Below are positions 35,242 to 64,000 of a stretch of 64,000 bases of DNA, in pieces. Below the pieces are notes generated by a model, which saw nothing but the letters and a program-made list of their open reading frames with translations, was not told where the DNA came from and searched no databases. Both the position numbers and the translations under genes were made by a program. The DNA comes from Verrucomicrobiia bacterium. Its GTDB lineage: Bacteria; Verrucomicrobiota; Verrucomicrobiia; Palsa-1439. Numbering within the stretch: position 1 is the first letter of the stretch; each line of letters starts with the position of its first letter. The DNA lies in assembly GCA_041495285.1 (NCBI GenBank), contig JBGQCJ010000005.1, positions 15,374 to 79,373 of the forward strand. The letters are read 5' to 3'.

Positions 35242-37017
35242 CTACCGGTGGCGCGTGCTGATGAGCACCTGGATTCCCCGCACCGTCAACCACCCATCCT
35301 TGACTTTCAGTGGCAGATTGGCCGGTGGATCGTAGAAAAACATCCCCATCCAGAACCGGTCATGGGCGCTCATCATTTCCGCCGGATTGTGCTCCAGTAT
35401 GGCTTGCGTCAGATAGATTCCCGCGATGGGATGCACGTTATCGTTGATGGCGAAGAAATCCTTCTCGCCCGGGTGCCCCTCGGCATCAAACGGCAACCAG
35501 ATCGCCGTCCGATCCGCATACCATGCCACCGCCCACGGAGCATCGCTCATGAGCGCCTCGTCTTCTCGAAACGTGCCGGCGACGTGCTCGACGATGGTCG
35601 CCGGATCCGGCCCGAAATACACAACGCCCGGTGGTAAAATTGTGAAGATGAACGGCACCGCGTTCAGCGCCACAAACAGCCCCACCATTCCCGTCCGCAA
35701 GAGTCGCGTCCGAAACTGTAACCGCTCGAACAGCACATAGAAAAACGCCGCCGCATAGATAATCACCAGCGGCATGAACACATTCAGGAAATTCCGCTGG
35801 AGCAGACCGGCCACCGCCAGCCAGACCATGCTGATCAACATGCTCCAAAACACCAGCCGCCGCAGCCGAAACACTTCCACGCGCCGGAACCGATGCAGCA
35901 AGGCCGCCAGAAAAAATGCGATGAGATAATTTGAACCAACCTCCTTCAGCACATTCTCGTACAATTCCCGCCCGTTCAGCAACGCCTTGCGTATCACCGG
36001 CCAGACCTTGAACCGTGGCAAATCCACCTCAAACGCGCGCTGCAACTGTCCCGGCTTGATCTCCGTCGCGGTGCCCTTCCCGACACCCTCCAGCACCTCG
36101 AACGGCGCGAGTCCGAACGGGGTTTGCGCCACCCCCACATTGCGCACCACCCACGGCGTCAGCACCAACAGAAACACACCGAGGCACAAACCCACCTTCA
36201 TGTGCCATTGTTTGGGAAACGACACCGCAATGTACACCAACAACGGCACCAGCACCGACGCGAACGCGTATTGCGTCAGCGTCCCCAGTCCCACCGCCAA
36301 CGCGCTGGCCGCCAGCGCACCGTTCACCCACCACGCCGACCGGCCCGCCTCCTGCCATTTCTCCGCCTTCAACACTCCGTGGGCCGCCGTCAAAAACAAC
36401 ACGCTCAACAATCCCATCGGCAGTCCGGACATCCCCATATCCAGCAGCGAATCGCAGAACAAATACAGAAATGCGCTCAACACCGCCACGCGGTGATCAA
36501 ACATCTCCCGCGCCAGCATGTACATCAACACCATCCCGACCAGATAAAACAGCCACGACACGACCATCAACAACCGATCCGCCCGGACCGTTTGCATTCC
36601 GACCTTCATCTGAAAATCCGGTTGCACGACGCGAAACACGGTGGAAAGAAGCAACGGATAAAACGGCGGCGTCCACAACTCCGGCTGCGTCCCCAGCTTC
36701 GCGTCCAGCAGCGGCTTGCCGATCGAGTTCAGATAACCCAGCGCCATGGGGCGGATGTCTTCCGTCACGTAGCCCCGGCCGCGCCAGAGATTGCGGCCGA
36801 GTTGTCCCATATCCATCGCTTCAGGATCCCGCAAACCAACAAACTGCGTGCCGGTGTACAGCAGGATGATCATCAGCACCAGCAGGCAAAACAACCCCAG
36901 CCGAAACCATTGCACGCCGAGGCCCACATCCAACTTGAAAATCCAATCCTGGATGCGCTCAAACAGTGGTTGTTGCGGAGTTGGTTGTTCGGTTTTCTTG
37001 CCGAGGATCAAGGGCAT
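35242..37017 (-). CDS. Polytopic membrane protein, GT-C (ArnT/PMT-like) glycosyltransferase-like
   Basis: 591 aa, about 13 predicted TM helices and a C-terminal soluble domain. N-terminal loop ...GQLGRNLWRGRGYVTEDIRP... resembles the GT-C first periplasmic loop. Weak assignment. Confidence 0.35.
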   Translation of the reverse strand: MPLILGKKTEQPTPQQPLFERIQDWIFKLDVGLGVQWFRLGLFCLLVLMIILLYTGTQFVGLRDPEAMDMGQLGRNLWRGRGYVTEDIRPMALGYLNSIGKPLLDAKLGTQPELWTPPFYPLLLSTVFRVVQPDFQMKVGMQTVRADRLLMVVSWLFYLVGMVLMYMLAREMFDHRVAVLSAFLYLFCDSLLDMGMSGLPMGLLSVLFLTAAHGVLKAEKWQEAGRSAWWVNGALAASALAVGLGTLTQYAFASVLVPLLVYIAVSFPKQWHMKVGLCLGVFLLVLTPWVVRNVGVAQTPFGLAPFEVLEGVGKGTATEIKPGQLQRAFEVDLPRFKVWPVIRKALLNGRELYENVLKEVGSNYLIAFFLAALLHRFRRVEVFRLRRLVFWSMLISMVWLAVAGLLQRNFLNVFMPLVIIYAAAFFYVLFERLQFRTRLLRTGMVGLFVALNAVPFIFTILPPGVVYFGPDPATIVEHVAGTFREDEALMSDAPWAVAWYADRTAIWLPFDAEGHPGEKDFFAINDNVHPIAGIYLTQAILEHNPAEMMSAHDRFWMGMFFYDPPANLPLKVKDGWLTVRGIQVLISTRHR

Positions 37018-52992: not shown

Positions 52993-53287
52993 GACGCGGG
53001 CATTATAGCGGCGAGTCCGGCGTGGTCACGCCCGAAAACACGTTGGCCGAGTTTCCGCACGTTGGGAAACTCGGCCCCGCGTTTGCAGCTTCGATCGCTC
53101 TGTTGGCGGTCGTCGATCGTTCAACAACTGCGTCCCAGCGCGATCTTTGATTTTTCCGTACGTGAGCCGCAGAGCGTTCCGCAGCTTCGTCACGGCGGGG
53201 TCGCCTCCTTGCACGCTTGCGCGTTCATCGAGCATCCCCCAGCCCGATGCCGGACTGTTGAGCTTGGGTCGTGCCAGCGCAAAAACC

Positions 53288-53308
53288 GTGGAGCGTGGAG
53301 CGTGGAGC
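53288..53308. repeat. (GTGGAGC)x3 heptamer tandem repeat in the mutS-proximal intergenic region
   Basis: GTGGAGCGTGGAGCGTGGAGC. A near-identical GTGAAGCGTGGAGCGTGGAGC occurs at 18340-18360, inside coding sequence. Confidence 0.6.
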
Positions 53309-53376
53309 GGAGAACGAACCGACAAAGACGGCCAGTCCGAGCGCCCAAATTGGTCCGACACGACACAAAAATGGCC

Positions 53377-53775
53377 TCAGCGTGCGAAAAGCTCTTTGAG
53401 CGCGGTGCGAAGTTGTTCCATCTCGAAGGGTTTTTCGAGCAGCGTGTTGCCGGTGCGATAAATGAAGTCGGCCAGCCCGGCGCGGCGGCCGGGATTGCCG
53501 GTGATGAAGATGAATTTCTCGGCCAGATAGGGATATTGCCGGATGACCTCGTTATAGAGCGACTCGCCGTCCACGCGGGGCATCATCAGGTCGCAGATCA
53601 CCGCCTCGTAATCCGCGCCGCGCAACATATCCATGGCTTCCATCCCGTTGGCGGCGATGTCCGCGATGCAATTTTCGTAGGTGAGCACTTCGGAAAGCAA
53701 TTCGGCAAGCTGGTAGTCGTCCTCGACCACCAACACGCGATGGACGTACTCGACGGGACGCTTGGACTCGGTCAC
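53377..53775 (-). CDS. Stand-alone response-regulator receiver domain (CheY-like)
   Basis: VLVVEDDYQLAELLSEVL...AVICDLMMPRVDG...FIFITG... ; GTG start. Confidence 0.75.
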   Translation of the reverse strand: MTESKRPVEYVHRVLVVEDDYQLAELLSEVLTYENCIADIAANGMEAMDMLRGADYEAVICDLMMPRVDGESLYNEVIRQYPYLAEKFIFITGNPGRRAGLADFIYRTGNTLLEKPFEMEQLRTALKELFAR

Positions 53776-53796
53776 TTGAAGTTCCTCACCGAAAAC

Positions 53797-53840
53797 TGGA
53801 GCCGGCGATCAGACTTGAACTGATAACCTGCTGATTACAA
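53797..53840 (-). other. tRNA 3'-half-like sequence (T-arm, acceptor 3' strand, CCA), candidate att/direct-repeat remnant at the element boundary
   Basis: Minus strand reads ATCAG-TTCAAGT-CTGAT-CGCCGGC-T-CCA: a perfect 5-bp T-stem, T-loop of TTCRANT type, 7-nt acceptor strand, discriminator, CCA. No matching 5' acceptor, D-arm or anticodon arm upstream. Confidence 0.35.
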
Positions 53841-53950
53841 ATTGCACTAGGTGTGTTTCAGCCCGTGTCAGCTTGCGCTGCATTGTGCACGCCATCATGC
53901 TCCACTGCAAGGGCTTTTCTGTTTCATGCTCGCTGGTGAAACACCGCGAA

Positions 53951-55213
53951 TCATCCCGTCACCGGAAGCGCCGTGTGACTAGCCTTCGCGTCTACTTCGA
54001 CCGCCTTCCCGGTCACTGTCAGCCGAATTCGCCGGGCCTGCGCCAACAGATGGTCGGGACGCACGTCACCGTAGGTGTGCGCGATCAGGGCGGGGCCGGA
54101 CTTATCACCAAGCAGCGCCGCAATCTCGCTGTCTGTCAGCCCGGATTCTCGCGCTTGCGTGACGTAGAAACTTCGCAACCCGTGCGGGGTGACGTGCCCG
54201 ATCTTCAATTTCCGGCAAGCCGCCGTCAGCCGATGCCGGACGGCAGCCGCATCGCGGGGTTTGCTGGGGTCAAAGGGTGACGCGAACAGCAACGGGCTTG
54301 TTGCCCGTTCCTGCATAGCGCTCAGCAAGGCTTCCAGTTCAGGCGTGATTGCCACCCACGGCGTCACGCCCTTCTTCTCGCGTATCACATTCACAAGTCC
54401 TTCGGCCAGATTCACCATGCCCCACCGCAGCGGCAGCGCCTCGCCAATCCGCAAGCCGCTGTAGGCGAGAAATGCCACAAGGTCAGCAATCGCAATTTCG
54501 TTACGCCGGCGCAGCCAGCCGATGATTGCCTGCAAGCCTTCGGGTGTCGGCGCAACTTCCCGGCAGTGCCGCACGTCGGCGGCGCTAGTGTACGTGGTGC
54601 GGTCGCGCATCGGATTGGATTTCAACAGGTCGCGCCGGACGGCAAAGCGCAACACGTTGCCGAAGACGCCAAGCTCTAGGTCAACCGCGCGGTCGCCGCC
54701 CGTCGTGCGTTTGGTCCTTTCGTGCCCGCGCAGCTTATAGGTGACAACGTAACCGCCGCTCTTGCGCCAGGCGTGGTAACGGTCGCAATCGGCGTTCGTC
54801 ACCGACGCGGCAGGGTGCTCGCCGAAGTAGGCCAGCAATGGGCGCAGATGCCGCCGCTCGTTGTAGATCGTGCGGGGCAATTTCCGCCCCTTCGTCTTGC
54901 GTGGGTAGCCTGCCGTTTCGTATTCCGTTGCCAGTTCGCGCACCGTCACGCGCCCGCGCTGCAAGACAACGCCTTCGGGTTCAATCCCGTTTCGTATCAG
55001 CCAATGGTCACGCTTCCACTTCCGCAACCATTTGCGGGCGTCACTAGCATTGTCGGTTTCAGTGCTCTTCCAAGTCAACTTGCGATTGTCGCGCACGCGG
55101 GCGTAAATCTTCTTCCCTTCATAACGGAAGTGCTTCCCGCTTTCGTCCACGCCCTCGCGGACTTGCCGCGCCAAGCACGGGCCAATTATCTCGAAGCGTG
55201 TTTTGCTGGTCAT
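53951..55213 (-). CDS. Tyrosine-type site-specific integrase
   Basis: C-terminal catalytic domain with R...HGLRSFYVTQ...(H-x-x-R)...Y (LIAHTYG) tetrad. N-terminal SAM-like/arm-binding region. Confidence 0.85.
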   Translation of the reverse strand: MTSKTRFEIIGPCLARQVREGVDESGKHFRYEGKKIYARVRDNRKLTWKSTETDNASDARKWLRKWKRDHWLIRNGIEPEGVVLQRGRVTVRELATEYETAGYPRKTKGRKLPRTIYNERRHLRPLLAYFGEHPAASVTNADCDRYHAWRKSGGYVVTYKLRGHERTKRTTGGDRAVDLELGVFGNVLRFAVRRDLLKSNPMRDRTTYTSAADVRHCREVAPTPEGLQAIIGWLRRRNEIAIADLVAFLAYSGLRIGEALPLRWGMVNLAEGLVNVIREKKGVTPWVAITPELEALLSAMQERATSPLLFASPFDPSKPRDAAAVRHRLTAACRKLKIGHVTPHGLRSFYVTQARESGLTDSEIAALLGDKSGPALIAHTYGDVRPDHLLAQARRIRLTVTGKAVEVDAKASHTALPVTG

Positions 55214-55374
55214 GGCAGTTTCTCCAAGTAACGGGCGATCAGTTGGTCAATCACCCAACTTCTTTGCCGGTCCTTCTTGTCGCAGTACGTCTCCATCTTC
55301 GCTGCTGATTCGGGCGACACCGTTATGGACCATTTCACAGTTACGCCTTTGGGACTATTTGTTGGTCTGACCAT
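55210..55374 (-). CDS. Possible small ribbon-helix-helix (CopG-like) protein, stop overlapping the integrase start
   Basis: 54-aa ORF ...VKWSITVSPESAAKMETYCDKKDRQRSWVIDQLIARYLEKLP* has a beta-strand then two helices, typical of RHH. ATGA overlap with int. Its 5' end overlaps the recombinase 3' end by about 20 nt. Confidence 0.3.
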   Translation of the reverse strand: MVRPTNSPKGVTVKWSITVSPESAAKMETYCDKKDRQRSWVIDQLIARYLEKLP

Positions 55375-56095
55375 TGCGTATCTCCTTCTTGGTTGTGGCG
55401 CTCAAGGGATTTGTCCGCGCCAGGATTCTTAGAACTTGGATCGGTGTCCATTCAGTATGCCCGCGCTTCGTTGTCGCGCCGATCTTTTGCAGCTTGGCTG
55501 CGATCTTACGCAACGAAAAGCCGCGCTGACGCTGCTTACGGACAATGCCAATTACGCGTTGCTCGGTGTCGTTAGGCACCAGTTTTCCATCCACCGCCAC
55601 AAATCCAAACGGCACATCACCGCCGAGCTTCTCGCTGCGCTGCCGCTTGTATTGCATCGCACGCAGTGTTTTCTCGCTGATTTCCTTTCGGTAAACTTCA
55701 GCGAGGAGTGCCTTCAGCGTCAAATCCATCGTGCCGCTCACGGTCTTGTTTTCAACGAAGCCTTTATCCAGCGTGAAGAGCCGCGCCTTCGCCGGGCCGC
55801 AGACATCCTCCAAAAAAATCAGGGTATCCTTCTGCGAGCGGGACAATCGCGACAAGTCCGCAACAACGACGATGTTTGCCGCCTTCGCTTTCACCATCGC
55901 AACGAGCGCAGCAAATCCAGGCCGCTTGCTGGCGGGTTTTCCGCCACTGACGCCTTCGTCGCGCAACACCGCAATCAGTTCCCAGCTTTGCCGCGCGGCC
56001 TCGGCACAAATCAGCGCTTCTTGCCGTTGCAAGCTCTCGCCGTCTTTGACCTGCTCCTCTGTGCTTACGCGAATGTAACCGACTGACTTTATCAT
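55355..56095 (-). CDS. Serine recombinase (resolvase/invertase family) with C-terminal HTH
   Basis: SVGYIRVSTEEQ...GESLQRQ has the catalytic Ser motif. About 246 aa with C-terminal DNA-binding region. Confidence 0.85.
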   Translation of the reverse strand: MIKSVGYIRVSTEEQVKDGESLQRQEALICAEAARQSWELIAVLRDEGVSGGKPASKRPGFAALVAMVKAKAANIVVVADLSRLSRSQKDTLIFLEDVCGPAKARLFTLDKGFVENKTVSGTMDLTLKALLAEVYRKEISEKTLRAMQYKRQRSEKLGGDVPFGFVAVDGKLVPNDTEQRVIGIVRKQRQRGFSLRKIAAKLQKIGATTKRGHTEWTPIQVLRILARTNPLSATTKKEIRNGQTNK

Positions 56096-56199
56096 CTTGA
56101 CCCCTAATGAGGGGTTTTATACTACTAATCCTACCAAATGGCAAGCGGATGCTGTTACAGATGGTGCCAAGTGTTACGGATCTCACCGCAAATTCCACG

Positions 56200-56523
56200 T
56201 CAGTGGGCGCTTCCGCCGCAGGTCGGCAAGGCTTGGGATTCATCGGTTACTCCTCCTTCTCCGTTTCGATGACCGCACATCGCCGGTGTCTCAGTGGCCG
56301 GTGCAGTGGGCTCAGTCAAATCGCACTCGCAGTTTGCTTCGGTGTGCCGTTCGAGGAATCGCAGCCAATCGGATTCCTTTACGCGGACAATGCCGCCGAC
56401 CCGCACAACGCGCAAACCGCGCTCCTTTCGCCAACGATAAACAGTAGCGCGACTTGCCTTGCCAACCTCGCGGATCTCATCCAATGTGTAGAGTCTTTCA
56501 ATTGGTTCCGGGTTTGTGGTCAT
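56200..56523 (-). CDS. AlpA/excisionase-like HTH DNA-binding protein
   Basis: LYTLDEIREVGKASRATVYRWRKERGLRVVRVGGIVRVKESDWLRFLE is an HTH_17/Xis-like domain. The C-terminal 40 aa of the ORF are low-complexity and may not be translated. Confidence 0.55.
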   Translation of the reverse strand: MTTNPEPIERLYTLDEIREVGKASRATVYRWRKERGLRVVRVGGIVRVKESDWLRFLERHTEANCECDLTEPTAPATETPAMCGHRNGEGGVTDESQALPTCGGSAH

Positions 56524-56670
56524 TGTTGTCCTCGCATTGGCGCCTTCGATCGCATTTTTTACCGCTCAGTATCGTTGCCACCAGTAAAGACGACTGAAAC
56601 AGCTTTGTTGCCGGGGGGTCACCCTTTGCCAGCGGGTAGTGCCGTGCAGGATTTGAAGCGGGTGCGGTGG

Positions 56671-57505
56671 TCATGGCTTCGTCGAGCCGGCCAGCAGTTT
56701 CACCAGCCGGGTGCGTTCCTTCGTCTCCAATTGCCTTACCCGGGCCAACGCCTCCAAGTCCATGCGTTGCTCGACCTCGCTTCGGATCCGATGCCGCAAC
56801 ACGTCCACCGGGAGCGCGTCCAGTTCCACGCAGCGGTCGCCATGCTCGGCGATAAAAGCGGCGCGGCGCGTATCGGTGCGTTTGGTCGGGTCGGGCGGCA
56901 AGTGGTAGCGCTCGATGTCCTCGGCGGTCAGGGCGCACTTGACAATTTCTGGACAAAGCCTCGAAAAACGCCAGCCGCTCGCGCAGACTGCGCACCATGT
57001 CCTCGCCGCTGGGGTCGAAGTCGCCGAAGTAGAGCACGCTCGCATTGTCGCCACCGCCATAGCGATCAGCGGCATTGTGGATACTCGCCCAACCATCGTA
57101 ACCACGGCCCACGTTGAGCGTGACGCCATACGATTCGAGCACGTCCTCGAAAATGCCGGACAGTGCGTCCTTCTCGAGCCAGACCTCGACGTAACCCGGC
57201 TGGCTTGCCCACACGTCGCGACGGTATGCCTGACGCGCGGTTTCGCTGAAGTCAGCTAGGTCAGCCCACATGCTGACGGTTCGGGGTCGGCGCAACCGGT
57301 CTTCGATCCAAGCCCACGGGATCGTTCCGTCCTGGCGGGCGCGCACGAGCACATTACTGACTGCCTGATATTGGCTCCGGTTGTTTTCTATGACTTGTCT
57401 GGAAACGAGTTGGTAGTACACCTGCCGCACCGTCATCGGATGGTGTTCAGACAAAACCTCGACGGCGACTTCCAGCAACTGCTGCGTTTTCGCATGCCTA
57501 CCCAT
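56671..57505 (-). pseudogene. Topo VI-A/Spo11-like 'mini-A' protein (winged-helix with YY, toprim with DxD), interrupted by a frameshift
   Basis: AAGGAG SD then ATG 57505. MTVRQVYYQLV (R-x-V-Y-Y, as in the Spo11/TopVIA catalytic Tyr region), YVEVWLEKDALSGIF (toprim E), LYFGDFDPSGEDM (toprim DxDPxG). The frame breaks near a T5 run at about 56960-56975. A second frame continues ...PEIVKCALTAEDIERYHL...LAGSTKP to stop 56671. Confidence 0.5.
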
Positions 57506-57897
57506 CAGACCGCAGTCTCCTTGCCGGCAAGCCGTAGGACATACGCGCAAGAGTCACGGCCCTTGTCGTTGCCGCTCTGTTCACTAGTGCTCGATCTCAC
57601 ACCCGGTAAAGACGACAGCGGCCCATATTTGCACCGAGATCGTGAAAGATTTCTTTGGTGGCCCGACATCTTCCGGCTGCTGTCCGCGATGCTGTTCAAC
57701 GAATCGGGCGTCATGGTGAAATCGGAGGCAGTTGCTGCGCATGCGGGGTGCCGTCACTGTGTCCTACTTAACCGCATCCTCTGGCGAGAAGCTGGCCGAC
57801 GGTAAGCAAAAGGCCGTGGCGAGCTACCCATCGAGTTCACGGCCGCAGGACTTATCAAATCAAGTCGTGTTTCTGTCGATCCTTGGCCATCCACGCC

Positions 57898-58509
57898 TCA
57901 GTTCAGTTGATTCGGCCACTCGGGACAGAAGAAAGGCGTCAGAAACCTTGCTTTGTCAAACGGAACCCGAAACGGCAAGTTCGCCCCAGCGAATGGGACG
58001 TTGAACACTCGTCGTTCGGACTGCATGGTTTCAACCCAAAACTGTCCGTCCTCTATGTGCATGATACAGACGCACTCGCTGAGGAACTCCTGACAAAAGC
58101 GTTCCGGTGAGGCGAACTTCGTCTCGACTTCGAGCAAATCGGGAGCACCATCAGCCCTTAAGAGTCCTTCCACTTTTTTCAGCCCTCCCGCCTCCTGTAG
58201 ATCCCACAGCCTCTCCAAGAGCTCGTCACTTGCGGCAAAAAAACTTGTCGCGTCGGGAACCAGATGAGCGATCGTGTCGGGCTGACAGAACCGCAAGAAC
58301 TCCACGGCTCTCCGTCTTCTTGGTTCTTCATGGTTGTAGACGGCGGATACGATCCAGATTTGACCACGGTGTGGGGCTGTCCGTGCGGTCTTTCTGTATG
58401 GTCTTGGCGCGAGATTTTGCAGCACCAGCCGAAACTCCTCGGCTAATCGCATGTGAACTGTTCCGAGCTTGATCACTTTATCACTGTTATGGCGTGTGCT
58501 TCTTAACAT
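57898..58509 (-). CDS. Hypothetical protein (element cargo)
   Basis: 203-aa ORF with slightly lower GC. No recognisable motif; the start could be at internal Met-20. Confidence 0.4.
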   Translation of the reverse strand: MLRSTRHNSDKVIKLGTVHMRLAEEFRLVLQNLAPRPYRKTARTAPHRGQIWIVSAVYNHEEPRRRRAVEFLRFCQPDTIAHLVPDATSFFAASDELLERLWDLQEAGGLKKVEGLLRADGAPDLLEVETKFASPERFCQEFLSECVCIMHIEDGQFWVETMQSERRVFNVPFAGANLPFRVPFDKARFLTPFFCPEWPNQLN

Positions 58510-58530
58510 TGGTTACTCTCCTATATGGAT

Positions 58531-59472
58531 CTAGTTGTTCTTTCTAATGGACTCCACTCCCTGCTTCTCATCGAGTAGGTGACGGCTGATGAAGTCAACG
58601 AGGCTGTTGAGCGTCCTCCGAACCTTCTTGGACAGTGGCGCGCCCTTGGCGACGAGATCGGCAATGCGCTTGACGGTGGTCTCGATCATGTTCACCTCTG
58701 TCTCCAGCGTAGACAACGGCGTGGCGTCCCGTACATCCGCCTCCGTGGGCGTAGCCGCGCTCAACTCGCGGCGCTCGCACTCGCCCGCCTTGCGATGCAG
58801 CTCCACCAGAGGACGCAGTGCCTCCGCCCACCCGTGTAGCAACACGGTGTCCTTGCAGCCCTCAAGGTCCCAGTAGGTCGGGAGTTTGTCAGTGAACCGC
58901 CGGATGACTACCGCCCCTGAGACCTTGTCCACGCCTCCGTCGATGTCTTCGACCTTCAGGCGGGTCGGCGTCCCGTAATCCTTGAGTTCCCAGTTGTAGA
59001 TCACCTTGCCCCGCTTGATGGACCGGCGCAACGCAGCGCGCGTCAACTTGTGCTTCTCCGCCTCGTTGAGCCAACGATCTTGCTCCTCGGGCTCAAGGTG
59101 CGCGACCTCGCGGTGATGCTCCCACGACAGTTTGTCGCGCCGGCGCGACGGATCCACGCTCCCCGCTACCCAGTTTAAGTCGCGCAAAGTGGCCTGCCGA
59201 TATTCCATCGCCGCTGGAAGTTTTGAGTACTCCTCGCCCCATTCATGCTCGCCGTACCGTAACCAATCGCCGATCCACCACCTCAACGCGCCGCCGGCAC
59301 GGCAGAGCTTCGCACCAATGTCCTGCCACTCCTTTTCGGTGATCTTTCTGGTGACGAGCAACGAGGTCTTGGTGAACTCGATCCCAGGCAGGATCAAACC
59401 ACTCTCGAGTTTCATCGGCTCATTCCCGCAGTTTACCGCGGTGGTTTCCGCATTCTGTAACTTGTTCTTCAT
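58531..59472 (-). CDS. Hypothetical protein with W-W-I-G-D-W-L / L-S-W-E-H-H motif (DUF3102-like, phage/plasmid-associated)
   Basis: 313 aa. ALRWWIGDWLRYGEHEWGEEY ... LSWEHHREVAHL resembles DUF3102-type proteins; this is recalled pattern only. Confidence 0.4.
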   Translation of the reverse strand: MKNKLQNAETTAVNCGNEPMKLESGLILPGIEFTKTSLLVTRKITEKEWQDIGAKLCRAGGALRWWIGDWLRYGEHEWGEEYSKLPAAMEYRQATLRDLNWVAGSVDPSRRRDKLSWEHHREVAHLEPEEQDRWLNEAEKHKLTRAALRRSIKRGKVIYNWELKDYGTPTRLKVEDIDGGVDKVSGAVVIRRFTDKLPTYWDLEGCKDTVLLHGWAEALRPLVELHRKAGECERRELSAATPTEADVRDATPLSTLETEVNMIETTVKRIADLVAKGAPLSKKVRRTLNSLVDFISRHLLDEKQGVESIRKNN

Positions 59473-59906
59473 ATTCGTTCCTCCTTTTCACCCTGTAAAG
59501 ACGCCGCGCGGGGGGTCTGTTGCAGAGGGGTGCGGCGGTTTTCTTTGATAGCCCGATCCCGTGCGGCTCCCGTTTCGCCTCGGTCGGAGACACCTCGTCG
59601 CTCTTGACCTGCTCGAACAGCTCCGGCTTCTCCGCCGCCCACCCCGCCAGGAACTTGGCCTGGCCACTATCCTTCTTGCTGATGTCGAGTTTGTCGAGCG
59701 TGGGCGGCGCGTCTGGTTGGGGTTCCTTCCGGGAACTCCGAGTGCCTCCGCCCTTGCGTCCCCGCGCTCCAGCTTGCTTCGGCTTCTTCCTCAGGAACTC
59801 GCCTATGACCCGCACGCCTCGATCTCGATGGCGTGGGCCTACCTTGGACTTCTTAGCCGCCTTACTGCCGAGGACATCGGGATGATTTGACAAAAGCATC
59901 GGTAAA

Positions 59907-61172
59907 TTGATAGCTCTCGACCTGCTGGAAACAGCGGGCATGGCACGGAAGCGATCCAAACTGACGATGAGCAGGACGCAACTGACTGAAGTGCGGCAAC
60001 GGCTGCGTCAGGCGGAGCAACAAGAGCGTGAGGCGCGTAAGCGGGGTGAAACGAGTGTGGCGAACGTCGCATGGGAACATGTGCAACGTCTGAAGGCTGT
60101 GCTAATGGCCACGAGCGGTAAACACACTTTGGACGAGATCGCCTTAGAGTGTGGGTGTGCGCGCTCGACGGCGCACATCTGGCTGGAAAAGTTCACTCGC
60201 GTAGGGCTGCCCGCCCTTTTGCTCAGCAGCGCGACGGGCAGACCGAGCCGCATCGCCGATCCGACCGTGCAGGCGGAACTGCGGGCGGGCTTGCGGGAAG
60301 GCGAGTTGTACACGGCCGACGAAGTGGTAGCGTGGTTGCGCTTGACTTACGGCATCGAGTGCCCGGCTCAATCTTTGTACTACTGGATGAGAAAACTCGA
60401 CCCAGCGAGTCTGCCGGTTGACCAGACCATACTCGGTGACGCGATAGAGGTCATGGCTCCGTGGCTCGACCAGTGTGTGGATGCGGTCATCTCAGACTTT
60501 CCCGCCGGGTTGACGAACGCCCCGCACGACAAGTCGCCGCCCCTCGAGCGCCTCTGGCCGCTGCTTCACCGGCTCAGTCGGGGCGTCGTCATTACGACTG
60601 CGAGCCAACCGTTCGCCTCGCTGTGTGTCGCCAGCAATCTGAAGAATTTCAGGCATGACTGGGTAATGCGGAAGAACCGCGGGTCGAACTTCGCCTGCAC
60701 GGTGCGCCAGCCGATGCGGGACCATGAGCATGTCTTGGTTTTCTGCGCCAAAACCAATTGGACATTTAACCCGCAACGCGAGCAACGCCGAGGCAGTGGC
60801 ATGCACATGGCGGGACGAATGACGACCTGGATGTCGCGGAGCACCAACTACCGAGAGAGCGGCGACGAGTTCAAGCCTCGCACCGGCATCGTCACCGAAG
60901 ATCGCGTGCCTTCATCCGTGCAGGACATCCAGGTCGAGACCGGTCTTCACCCCCAGCAGAAGAGTTTGAATTTTTTTCGCTATTTGGTGCGGACGTACAG
61001 TAATCCGGGAGACATTATTCTCGACCCATACTGCGGTTCAGCTACGACCTGCCGCGCCGCGCAACTTGAAGGCCGACACTTCGTAGGAATAGAGATTGAC
61101 CCCGAGCGTTTCCGTGTTGCCCAGAAACGTGTGGCTGAACCATTCCTGCCTGACTATTCCGGACGCAGATAA
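59907..61172 (+). CDS. DNA methyltransferase (N6-adenine / N4-cytosine, PF01555-like, permuted beta-class) with N-terminal HTH
   Basis: C-terminal motif I IILDPYCGSATTCRAAQLEGRHFVGIEID. Upstream candidate motif IV region DAVISDFPAG (degenerate DPPY). N-terminal ALECGCARSTAHIWLEKF is HTH-like. No adjacent restriction endonuclease gene. Confidence 0.65.
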   Translation: MIALDLLETAGMARKRSKLTMSRTQLTEVRQRLRQAEQQEREARKRGETSVANVAWEHVQRLKAVLMATSGKHTLDEIALECGCARSTAHIWLEKFTRVGLPALLLSSATGRPSRIADPTVQAELRAGLREGELYTADEVVAWLRLTYGIECPAQSLYYWMRKLDPASLPVDQTILGDAIEVMAPWLDQCVDAVISDFPAGLTNAPHDKSPPLERLWPLLHRLSRGVVITTASQPFASLCVASNLKNFRHDWVMRKNRGSNFACTVRQPMRDHEHVLVFCAKTNWTFNPQREQRRGSGMHMAGRMTTWMSRSTNYRESGDEFKPRTGIVTEDRVPSSVQDIQVETGLHPQQKSLNFFRYLVRTYSNPGDIILDPYCGSATTCRAAQLEGRHFVGIEIDPERFRVAQKRVAEPFLPDYSGRR

Positions 61173-61536
61173 TCGGTCGCGAGGCGCTCTCAGGCCGGGC
61201 TCGACTGTCTCAAAAAAAGCTGCGGTGCCAAGCGAAACCCAACTGTTGACGCGCCGCGGGTGTCCACGGCGGTATTCAGTGGGTCACGCGTCGTGGCGGT
61301 CTCCCGTTGCCGTCGCCGCTCGCCCCTCAGCCTGCCAGCGCGCAGTCGTGCTCTTTTCGGGCAGCCACTCCGAAACAAAACGCAGCAGCCAAGCCTTGAC
61401 CTCTGCCTTGTGCGTAGTCAGGTCGGCGCGTTCCTCGTCAGATACTAGCGCCGGCCAGACGCAGAGCTTGTCCCGATCACGGTCGTACCAGACCGACACG
61501 CCGCGCTCGCGGAGCTTGCCGATCAGAAAGCCAGCG

Positions 61537-63384
61537 TCAAATTTCGAGGGTTTCAGCATAGGCTTTTGCGGTTGGTTGCGGGGTTTGCGGGCTTTCATCC
61601 AAGGATTTGGCAAAAGTCCCTATGTAATCTTCTTGTGAGGATTTTCCTGAAATCGTTGCGGCAAACCCCGCAAACCCCGCAGTAGATCCGCTGCGGATGC
61701 GAAAGTTAGCAATACCGTTCCGATTCTTCTCTCGTGTTGCGTCAAAGAGGCTTTCTATATGAAGCCAGAGCGATGTTAGTCGTTTGCCCAATCGTTTCGA
61801 CGACCAGAGCCGCTTGCCATGATTTCCCTTGGCATCATCTCCGAAGTCGGCGTCGTATTTGGCAAACTTGTCCAACAGTTCCGCCGCCGTCCCGGCAAAG
61901 CCGTCAGGCTCGTTCGTCATCATGTCCAGTAAAGCCTTGCCGACGGGGTCGTTTTCCAAACAGAACCGGGACTTGTCAGCTTCGGCGGCTGACATGGCGG
62001 CGATAGCTTCGACTTCGGCGTTCATTGCCCTGCCAAGTTTGATCGCCAGCGTGCCGAAGTCCGGATGCCGCAAGTTGAGTCCCTTCGGCGTGGGCAGTTC
62101 ATCCGCCAGTGCCGCCGACAACGTCCGGGCAACCCACGATAGCCCGGCGGAGCGAGCCGCCGAAATTTCGGCGAGCAGCGCAGCATCATCTGTTTCGCCC
62201 ATTCGTCTATTCATGCGAACAAGTAAGAGCCTGTCCGCTGTTGCAGAGTCAGAGGCGAACAAGGGGTTAGCCGTGGTGACGGCAAGCCATGCCTTCGGCA
62301 GTAACTTGGTTTGTTGATCGTTGGTGTAGAGCTGCCGCTCTTGTTTCCCGCCGCCCGTTGCCGCCGCAGACAACGCTGACGGCAACCATTTAATCCAATT
62401 ATCTACGTTGTCGGGGATCACCAAGCCGCCGCCATTGATCGCGACCCAAAAGTCGTGTTGGCTCTTGTCCGTTTTGTCCAGTTCGGCCGGTTCGCTGGGC
62501 AGTCCAAACAGTCGGGCAATGCCGATGGCTGTCTTGGTCTTACCGCTGCGTATTTCGCCCGAAAAAATGATCGGCGGTTTACAGTTCGGATTTGTCGGCA
62601 AGCTCGTTACCCATAGCTTCAACAGCAACTTCCCGTGCGGATCGGCATAAGCGGCGTCCCGAAATAACCGGCAGGACTCAAACGGATCTTGCGGCTCGGT
62701 CAATTCCCATGTTGGCAATGTCATGCCTACTGGGAACAAAACACCGTCAGTCCCGTTGTCCACCGCCTCGACGTTGGACGCCGTGATCTTCGCACTCTGC
62801 CCGTCACCGTTGGATAGGTAAATCGCCTTGTCTCGGCTCGCCCAATAGGTTTCTGGGATGATGCCCGTGCCGTGCAACGCCGCAACCTCGACAGCGGCGG
62901 CAATGTACTGGAAAACCGGGTTGCCCATGTTGATCGCCGTAAGTTGAGCAACGTCGGATAGAAACTCGTCTGATTGGACTCGCAGCAACCGCTTGGTTTG
63001 ACTGTCGAAAAACATGGCGGTTGCAAAGTCCCGGTGTTGGGAATGAAAGTAGAACAGCCCCCGCTGGTTCAGAAATTCGACGGCAACATTTGCAACGGCT
63101 TCGTGCTTTTCCGTTGCTGGCAGGCGGGTTGACAGAATGCCGACAATCGCCGCCCGTAGCTCCTCGACGTTGGTAGTCGCCCCGGTGTTGATAGTCAGTC
63201 GAGCTTCACGCTTGCGGCTGTGTGCGTCAGGTTCAAAGTGTTTGCGAAACTCTCGCCAGCGCTTACCGCTGCAACCATCATGGTGACATTTGAAGCCAAG
63301 TCTGCCATCTGCGTTTTCAAAAACTGCAACCTCACCATGAACTCCATGCTCCGGGTTAAACGGGCACGATGCTAATTCGTACAC
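61537..63384 (-). CDS. Phage/plasmid P4-type primase-helicase (zinc-binding N-domain plus SF3-like P-loop)
   Basis: CPFNPEHGVHGEVAVFENADGRLGFKCHHDGC is a zinc-binding motif. Walker A-like FSGEIRSGKTKTAIGIA. Overall about 615 aa. GTG start; upstream frame open without ATG. Confidence 0.7.
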   Translation of the reverse strand: MYELASCPFNPEHGVHGEVAVFENADGRLGFKCHHDGCSGKRWREFRKHFEPDAHSRKREARLTINTGATTNVEELRAAIVGILSTRLPATEKHEAVANVAVEFLNQRGLFYFHSQHRDFATAMFFDSQTKRLLRVQSDEFLSDVAQLTAINMGNPVFQYIAAAVEVAALHGTGIIPETYWASRDKAIYLSNGDGQSAKITASNVEAVDNGTDGVLFPVGMTLPTWELTEPQDPFESCRLFRDAAYADPHGKLLLKLWVTSLPTNPNCKPPIIFSGEIRSGKTKTAIGIARLFGLPSEPAELDKTDKSQHDFWVAINGGGLVIPDNVDNWIKWLPSALSAAATGGGKQERQLYTNDQQTKLLPKAWLAVTTANPLFASDSATADRLLLVRMNRRMGETDDAALLAEISAARSAGLSWVARTLSAALADELPTPKGLNLRHPDFGTLAIKLGRAMNAEVEAIAAMSAAEADKSRFCLENDPVGKALLDMMTNEPDGFAGTAAELLDKFAKYDADFGDDAKGNHGKRLWSSKRLGKRLTSLWLHIESLFDATREKNRNGIANFRIRSGSTAGFAGFAATISGKSSQEDYIGTFAKSLDESPQTPQPTAKAYAETLEI

Positions 63385-63467
63385 GGTCCCGCCGCCCTTA
63401 ACCTTTGTGTTTTTGATCTCGATGTTGTGCCGCCTAAAAAATCCAGAAAGGTCAAAGTTTTCACTGA

Positions 63468-64000
63468 CGGGCCGAATCTATCTGCATTTTTGGCCCTAGC
63501 ACAATTAGCCCGCCGGCGATGGGCTTGTGCTGGGAACACGGCGTCGCCGTCAATTTCCTCTCTGAGAACGGTTACTTCCAAGCGCGCGTGACGGGCGTCG
63601 CCGATACCAGCGTGACATTGCGCCGCACCCAATTCCGCGCCGCTGATGATCCCGTGAAATCCGCCGCCATTGCCCGTCAGATCGTCGCGGGCAAAATCCA
63701 GAACGCGCGCAACAGTCTTTTGCGCGCGGGGCGCGAGACCGGGAACGCCGACGAACAAGCCAGGGTCGCCGCCGCTACCGACGCGCTCGCCCGCAGTCTG
63801 CGCGAGTTGGAGACGATCCGCGACCTCGAAGCTGTGCGCGGCAGCGAAGGCATAGCGGCGCAGATTTACTTTGCCGTGTTCACATTGTTGCTCAAGCAAC
63901 AGCGCGACGAATTTGTGTTTACCACGCGCACCCGTCGTCCGCCGCGCGACCGGATCAATTGCCTGCTCTCCTTTCTCTACGCCTTGGTGCGGCATGATTG
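63468..64000 (+). CDS. cas1: CRISPR-associated Cas1 integrase, 5'-truncated and running off the window
   Basis: Collinear with type I-C Cas1 from about residue 60: ESICIFGPSTISPPAMGLCWEHGVAVNFLSENGYFQARVTG...VTLRRTQF...AVRGSEGIAAQIYFAVFTLLLKQ...FTTRTRRPPRDRINCLLSFLYALV. An in-frame stop at 63465-63467 sits immediately upstream. None of the three upstream frames encodes the N-terminal domain. Confidence 0.85.

Follow-up and report, generated by a model that had tools for sequence, protein, structure and literature searches.

A Topo mini-A gene on an integrated element of a Verrucomicrobiia bacterium, probably inactivated by a single-base insertion, and a conserved 24-nt motif within the coding region of its clade

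Is a topoisomerase-like gene whose reading frame breaks two thirds of the way along a dead gene, an intact gene read with one base too many, or a gene that needs a programmed frameshift? The question is raised by a minus-strand gene at positions 56671-57505 of a 64,000-nucleotide (nt) stretch of contig JBGQCJ010000005.1 from a Verrucomicrobiia bacterium (this whole stretch is called the window below, and all positions refer to it). An earlier note, made from the letters alone, had proposed that the gene encodes a Topo mini-A protein, related to Topo VI-A and Spo11, that it is carried by a mobile element and that its frame is shifted in a run of five T (T5), by recent decay, sequencing error or programmed frameshifting. 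Our analysis supports the assignment to the Topo mini-A family and shows that the gene is carried by an integrated mobile element; we consider, with a probability of about three in four, that this copy was recently knocked out by a one-base insertion, TT>TTT, a few bases away from the T5 run.

The gene starts with ATG at 57505-57503, preceded by AAGGAG, and ends with TGA at 56673-56671, and this span of 835 nt (3n+1) yields a protein of 277 amino acids (aa) once the frame is corrected. Frame A (56957-57505; codons 1-183; peptide MGRHAKTQQ...RSLRERLAFFEA) encodes the winged-helix (5Y-CAP) domain and the Toprim domain through the DxD helix, as judged from the translation, the alignment of homologs and the secondary structure of the model. 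Frame B, +1 relative to frame A, continues from about 56955 with CPEIVKCALT... (CPEIVKCALTAEDIERY...LLAGSTKP, then the stop) and covers codons 184-277 and the stop codon (56671-56955), which by translation and homolog alignment correspond to the last Toprim strand, the T2BI box and the C-terminal helices. The product as written has 335 aa, 183 of them native and 152 out of frame; the out-of-frame read-through of frame A (56498-56670, minus strand) enters and overlaps the next gene.

Four minus-strand motifs define the protein: RQVYY (57413-57427), with the invariant R27 and the putative catalytic Y31, which lines up with TLREAYY in Topo VI-A chain 1d3y; WLEKDA (57164-57181), with the Toprim glutamate E111, and DFDPSG (57005-57022), the metal-binding DxDxxG motif of Toprim with D162 and D164, both placed by homolog alignments; and VELDAL (56812-56829), aligned with the T2BI box, that is, the Mini-A signature xWELDAL with V for W. 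The first three of these, the second frame running to 56671 and a corrected length close to 280 aa had all been pointed out before and are present. The DxDPxG signature had been named correctly as well, and only the glutamate has to be reassigned, from the E of YVEV to E111 of LEKDA, a choice which rests on the alignment to Topo VI-A and to reference Mini-A proteins.

The family assignment is carried by sequence searches. The corrected 277-aa product matched PHROG 6247 ("DNA topoisomerase") over its full length (E 7.6e-64). More than 6300 database proteins matched it at E<=1e-3, the best of them 70-78% identical single open reading frames (ORFs) of about 275 aa, and the reading frame is therefore not a chance one; an exhaustive search gave 7426 clusters at 50% identity. 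Matches to profiles of the classical enzymes were weak and yet correctly placed, Pfam TP6A_N over the Tyr region (E 0.013, 15.7 bits, below the cut-off of 26) and NCBIfam Topo VI-A over the Toprim region (15.3 bits against a cut-off of 424). Phage genomes yielded 79 records in a translated search, among them Pseudomonas phage NP1, whose Mini-A protein (34% identity, 96% coverage, E 4e-37) is a reference sequence of Takahashi et al. 2020, Fig. 2 (PMC7671362), and a gene of an 8.8-kb Asgard archaeal plasmid annotated as "Topo mini-A" (LC711084) was found at 32% identity (E 7e-33).

Among 113 close homologs and six distant members including that of NP1, the invariant residues include R27, Q28, Y31, E111, K112, D162, D164, P165, G167 and E227-L231. 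In the T2BI box ELDAL is invariant, V226 stands in place of W throughout the clade and the Asgard plasmid member has C. A single-sequence search against PDB sequences gave no useful match, and the family profile placed Topo VI-A chain 1d3y first (E 0.0047), with the Tyr and DxD segments aligned. The AlphaFold model (predicted local distance difference test, pLDDT, 89; predicted template modelling score, pTM, 0.82) shows a winged-helix domain of three helices and, after it, a Toprim sheet, the fold that had been anticipated. The size of 277 aa, with the Tyr motif from residue 27, makes the protein short and leaves it without the N-terminal 5Y-CAP part, and neither a GHKL/Bergerat-fold B-subunit gene nor a TOPOVIBL partner was found in the window or in nine related contexts. 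All checks of family identity proposed in the earlier note favoured Topo mini-A, and the outcomes that it had named as refuting did not occur. The gene is a further member of a described family, here broken, at a locus that is ordinary in itself.

The position of the break was established by comparison with homolog P0005, whose local peptide is identical to that of the window (LAFFEACPEIVKC). Its DNA (locus L011) reads GAG GCT TGT CCG GAA ATA GTC AAG and that of the window reads GAGGCTTTGTCCAGAAATTGTCAAG; therefore the window has one extra T, TT>TTT, in the run at 56957-56955 (minus strand) between codon 183 (GCT) and codon 184 (TGT). When every base was deleted in turn and each product was scored against a hidden Markov model (HMM) of 120 homologs, the best single-base deletion was likewise at 56957-56955 (531.8 bits), compared with 525.8 bits for the T5 run. 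The T5 run (56964-56968, minus strand) is normally read as Phe-Phe in frame A, giving A-F-F, and the second F is common to 83 of the 97 close homologs; the Ser that a correction in the T5 run would produce was found in none of the 97. The DNA comparison and the profile scoring together rule out the T5 run (56968-56964) as the site proposed in the earlier note, and move the site by about 10 nt: the extra T lies seven bases 3' of the T5 run, and the lesion is a 1-nt insertion at 56957-56955.

The reading as a recent knock-out agrees with the state of the gene and of its relatives. Identity to homologs 3' of the shift is 67.7%, compared with 67.8% for an intact control homolog, and the gene shows no further decay. 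Nothing native is left after residue 183: the frameshift takes away the last Toprim strand together with the T2BI box, which sits at the dimer interface in Topo VI-A (PMC7671362), and the product of the window copy should, judging from its sequence, be inactive. Independent disruptions were found in eight of the 79 relatives from genome assemblies, so that loss of the Mini-A gene in resident elements is common: L063 is broken in a T run at about codon 87, L065 in an A run at about codon 209 and L056 by a -1 shift just after ELDAL, L058 carries an insertion sequence (IS)-like sequence after residue 233, L044 is truncated after residue 223, and three further copies are described with the motif below.

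The alternative that survives best, though we regard it as unlikely, is that the gene is intact in the organism and that sequencing or consensus calling wrongly added a T to the short run beside the T5 run. It fits a lesion that is a single-base indel in a homopolymer, in an otherwise undamaged gene whose downstream part is as well conserved as that of intact homologs. A run of only 3 bases is not very prone to errors, however, and the same base was obtained by two different assemblers. Logan contig SRR29604912_287521 encodes exactly the same broken product of 335 aa; it agrees with the window at 100% over 53813-64000 and runs without a break through the frameshift site for 11 kb, so that no common second allele is visible; JGI contig Ga0534156_0000054 has the gene layout of the window and an identical MutS, and tblastn returned the same split Mini-A match there.

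An assembler artefact is therefore unlikely. Indel errors are not pervasive either, as no other split gene was seen in the window, the rest of which tiles as long intact ORFs, and true disruptions of Mini-A genes are frequent elsewhere, as the eight disrupted loci show. Exact-pattern scans with and without the extra T (metagenome_contigs, genome_contigs) gave no match, not even to the window's own sequence, and are uninformative on the existence of an intact allele. Two points weigh against a knock-out all the same: a consensus error at the extra T is possible, given that the two agreeing assemblies may derive from the same reads, and some full-length protein might in principle still be made through a low level of +1 slippage at the nearby UUUUU. 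Of the three options listed at the outset, a recent pseudogene is thus favoured over a sequencing error, and programmed frameshifting, discussed below, is unsupported.

A codon-level comparison of 96 non-redundant intact genes revealed a second property of this clade. Residues 32-41 form the only stretch with an excess of synonymous identity (observed/expected up to 1.65, z up to 6.2), and elsewhere in the gene |z| never exceeds 2. The conserved sequence is a 24-nt motif, GTTTCCAGACAAGTCATAGAAAAC, at codons 34-41, which is intact in the window and matches the consensus perfectly (57406-57383, minus strand). Its synonymous positions stay unchanged in relatives from more than ten phyla. The codons kept include GTT, AGA, CAA, GTC, ATA and GAA, several of which are expected to be rare in these GC-rich sequences, and the motif can be read as a near-dyad, GTTTC-CA-GAC-AA-GTC-ATA-GAAAC. 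Mini-A clades with less than about 55% identity lack it. Nothing indicated an RNA basis, as Rfam gave no match and neither strand showed a consensus secondary structure. With up to 4 mismatches allowed, no locus contained the 24-mer a second time.

Independent lesions in relatives give the same stretch the appearance of a mutational hotspot. An unbiased scan of the genome set yielded five close-clade copies with frameshifts, and in three of them the break lies within codons 35-38, each time through a different mutation: L037 gained an A in CAA, L042 lost the G of CAAGTC and L050 lost a C of TCCCGA. Two more lesions come from loci whose choice was biased: in L219 a deletion of about 63 nt breaks at GTTTCCAG|, and L221/L222 has a frameshift between R36 and I39. 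The binomial probability of three out of five or six frameshifts falling into a 10-codon target is about 1e-3 by our own estimate, which is based on small numbers.

These observations suggest a tentative and, on balance, improbable proposal, namely that Mini-A may carry its own cis-acting target at codons 34-41 and cut it with a 2-nt stagger around the AA centre, as a site-specific initiator of element replication or transfer. If true, imprecise repair would explain why copies die at the motif and perhaps also the frameshift of the window copy, which lies next to a possible near-copy of it.

The corresponding account of the window lesion, in which the element's own Mini-A cut a specific site, imprecise repair left an indel and the extra T arose beside a chance near-copy of that site, is distinctly less probable than a sequencing error. 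It draws on the motif being the only stretch with excess synonymous conservation, on the clustering of lesions in codons 35-38, and on the position of the extra T (56955-56957), 1-3 nt from TCCAGAAATTGTCA (56953-56940), a sequence similar to the motif core TCCAGACAAGTCA (57403-57391). The shared pattern TCCAGAN{3,4}GTCA occurs four times in the window, compared with 0.2 expected: at 35349-35362 (plus strand), 56940-56953 (minus), 57391-57403 (minus) and 63442-63454 (plus), the second of which abuts the frameshift and the last of which lies in an AT-rich gap between a 615-aa ORF and cas1.

This pattern was defined, however, after both sites had been seen. The second site is not kept in relatives (two off-position matches in 932 kb, compared with 3.2 expected) and shows no synonymous constraint, and the window lesion lies beside the putative site and not at its centre. 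Because the pattern is post hoc and its off-position matches are not enriched in relatives, we treat the resemblance at the window frameshift as possibly due to chance. Taken alone, the locus adds one more copy, most likely dead, to a described gene family and is of little consequence; the motif, as a short DNA stretch under selection at the nucleotide level, provides a candidate DNA substrate with which Mini-A function could be tested by a cleavage assay.

We consider it very improbable that a programmed +1 frameshift or transcriptional slippage yields the full-length protein from this gene. A UUUUU lies 7 nt upstream of the shift, where tRNA-Phe could slip +1, and a rare AGA codon is next in frame A; the homologs listed, however, are single ORFs of about 275 aa, and the DNA of P0005 encodes the same local peptide without the extra T. 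Synonymous variation at the frameshift site is normal (observed/expected 0.87-1.0), and in the disrupted relatives the breaks lie elsewhere and include shifts of either sign. Efficient polymerase slippage needs a run longer than T5, which counts against that variant.

The least probable alternative, that the protein belongs to another Toprim nuclease family (JetD/MksG of Wadjet, OLD, or a primase) and is not Mini-A/topoisomerase-like, can be dismissed, since the JetD match covers only about 50 Toprim residues (133-180; PADLOC E 0.0085) and falls far below that to PHROG 6247, Topo VI-A is the top match both by sequence profile and by fold, the R-x-x-Y-Y segment with its invariant Tyr, said by the earlier note to be missing in JetD-like families, is present, and no JetA, JetB, JetC or other defence partner was detected by PADLOC in five neighbouring ORFs or by Pfam. 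JetD-like membership was accordingly rejected, the profile match being marginal and limited to the Toprim segment.

The neighbouring genes place the Topo mini-A copy on an integrated element, as the earlier note had assumed. Downstream, on the same strand, follow an excisionase-like HTH_17 gene (56200-56523), a small serine recombinase of the resolvase/invertase type (55355-56095) and, where the element ends and chromosomal genes including mutS begin, a tyrosine integrase (53951-55213). Upstream there are two minus-strand ORFs of 203 and 313 aa without family matches (57898-59472), an N6/N4 DNA methylase with N-terminal helix-turn-helix (HTH) domains on the plus strand (59940-61172) and a minus-strand ORF of 615 aa with an N-terminal Cys/His motif (61537-63384). 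The match of the methylase to the N6_N4_Mtase profile is confined to the C-terminal two-thirds of that profile; the N-terminal HTH part of the protein is transposase-like, and it has SDFPAG where a DPPY-type motif might be expected.

Searches of Pfam, PHROG and PADLOC returned nothing for the 203-, 313- and 615-aa neighbours. The first 60 residues of the 615-aa ORF, rich in Cys and His (SCPFNPEHG...KCHHDGC), recur near Mini-A in L020, L071, L080, L082 and L085, and we infer that this ORF is a candidate replication protein. Past it, cas1 (287 aa) and cas2 (96 aa) lie on the plus strand at about 63519-64000 and run off the right end of the window (L001, 216-1383). On this side the Logan contig extends 216 nt beyond cas2, and its end there might mark a repeat array; the contig's other end lies exactly at 53813, 138 nt past the integrase gene, and may reflect the element boundary or population variation. 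A search for direct repeats as attachment (att) sites in 53000-64000 found only short matches at chance level.

In the JGI annotation of Ga0534156_0000054, a 336-aa ORF is called on the opposite strand (window 56107-57117, plus strand; L013, 1876-2886), and both the Mini-A gene and the HTH_17 gene are omitted there. As the Mini-A gene was overlooked by automatic annotation, broken Mini-A genes are probably under-counted.

The Mini-A clade is very abundant. Proteins 60-78% identical to that of the window were found in metagenome-assembled genomes labelled with more than ten phyla (L015-L062, L094-L173), including Chloroflexota, Planctomycetota, Acidobacteriota, Verrucomicrobiota, Proteobacteria, Spirochaetota and Armatimonadota, and in one archaeon of Aenigmatarchaeota. 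A metagenome scan confirmed at least 521 relatives, and IMG/VR contained only few copies of the close clade. Identity is about 70% across distant phyla and the neighbouring genes are mostly unrelated; BLAST clustering of these neighbours did not reveal a conserved partner gene. Some of the relatives lie on contigs of 0.2-5 Mb. Two homolog copies (L026 and L027; 67% identity) are present on one 21-kb contig (NZ_BNJF01000014.1) of Ktedonospora formicarum, a cultured Chloroflexota isolate, which could serve as an experimental host.

In relatives, the gene directly before Mini-A is one of several replication genes: Prim-Pol in L213 and L215, a primase-helicase with DUF3987 plus Toprim in L002, DUF3631 in L005 and DUF3854/DUF927 in L214. 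The gene after it encodes a tyrosine integrase or a large serine recombinase. In phage NP1, the gene lies among primase/helicase, ligase, RecA-like and exonuclease genes, that is, in a replication/recombination module. Nine IMG/VR contigs of about 4.7 kb (L193, L195, L200, L202, L204, L206, L207, L209 and L211) have terminal direct repeats of 95-144 nt and are probably circular genomes; in an ORF scan of one of them, L195, the 310-aa Mini-A was the sole ORF with a confident family match, and no Rep, primase or polymerase was detected. The 15-kb circular plasmid of Paenibacillus durus (L218, NZ_CP009289.1), annotated without a Rep, combines a Mini-A of 41% identity with a zonular-occludens-toxin (Zot) domain protein, as in filamentous phages.

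By analogy with the biochemistry of Topo VI-A and Spo11, the intact protein would form a homodimer, in which Y31 of one subunit and the Mg2+ site (E111, D162, D164) in the Toprim domain of the other would jointly break DNA through a 5'-phosphotyrosyl link and then reseal it, without an ATPase partner. Its context suggests a role in element replication, which it might initiate by nicking or cleaving a specific site or might support by assisting the element primase: Mini-A follows Prim-Pol or primase-helicase genes in close relatives, lies in the replication module of NP1 and is the only recognisable enzyme in the one 4.7-kb contig whose ORFs were scanned. This role is drawn from gene context, however, and the literature up to 2024 calls the function of Mini-A unknown or unexplored and reports no biochemistry for any member (PMC7671362; PMC11894792). 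Close relatives, moreover, already carry a primase or Prim-Pol, so that Mini-A would not be needed as the sole initiator there. For Asgard viruses, the idea of Mini-A as a rolling-circle initiator has been raised (bioRxiv 10.1101/2021.07.29.453957).

Comparison with known systems gives the following picture. Rolling-circle initiators with the origin inside their own gene, such as pT181 RepC and phiX174 gene A, provide an analogy for the embedded motif only: like Mini-A, they would combine a Tyr-linked DNA-breaking protein with a conserved cis-like sequence in its own coding region, whereas their fold is HUH and not winged-helix plus Toprim, and close relatives of the window Mini-A also carry primase genes. 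From the JetD/MksG nucleases of Wadjet-type systems, to which its profile matches are only marginal, the window gene differs in its invariant Tyr and in having no SMC-like partners nearby. Two features of Topo VIII are missing here, a B (ATPase) moiety, either fused or adjacent, and an RVELNAM box.

Topo VI-A and Spo11 likewise have a winged-helix Tyr domain followed by Toprim, and the same catalytic residues; the window protein is about 100 residues shorter, has no GHKL ATPase partner gene and stays below the Pfam and NCBIfam thresholds, and Mini-A proteins are described as lacking the N-terminal part that binds the B subunit in Topo VI-A (PMC7671362). The described Topo mini-A proteins (PMC7671362) share with the window protein the length of about 280-300 aa, the Toprim E and DxDxxG, the ELDAL core of the T2BI box, the location on mobile elements without a B subunit nearby and, in the NP1 member, direct homology. 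The window copy differs from them in VELDAL for WELDAL and in its frameshift, and its clade is found mostly on small integrated elements with integrases and primases and not in recognisable viruses.

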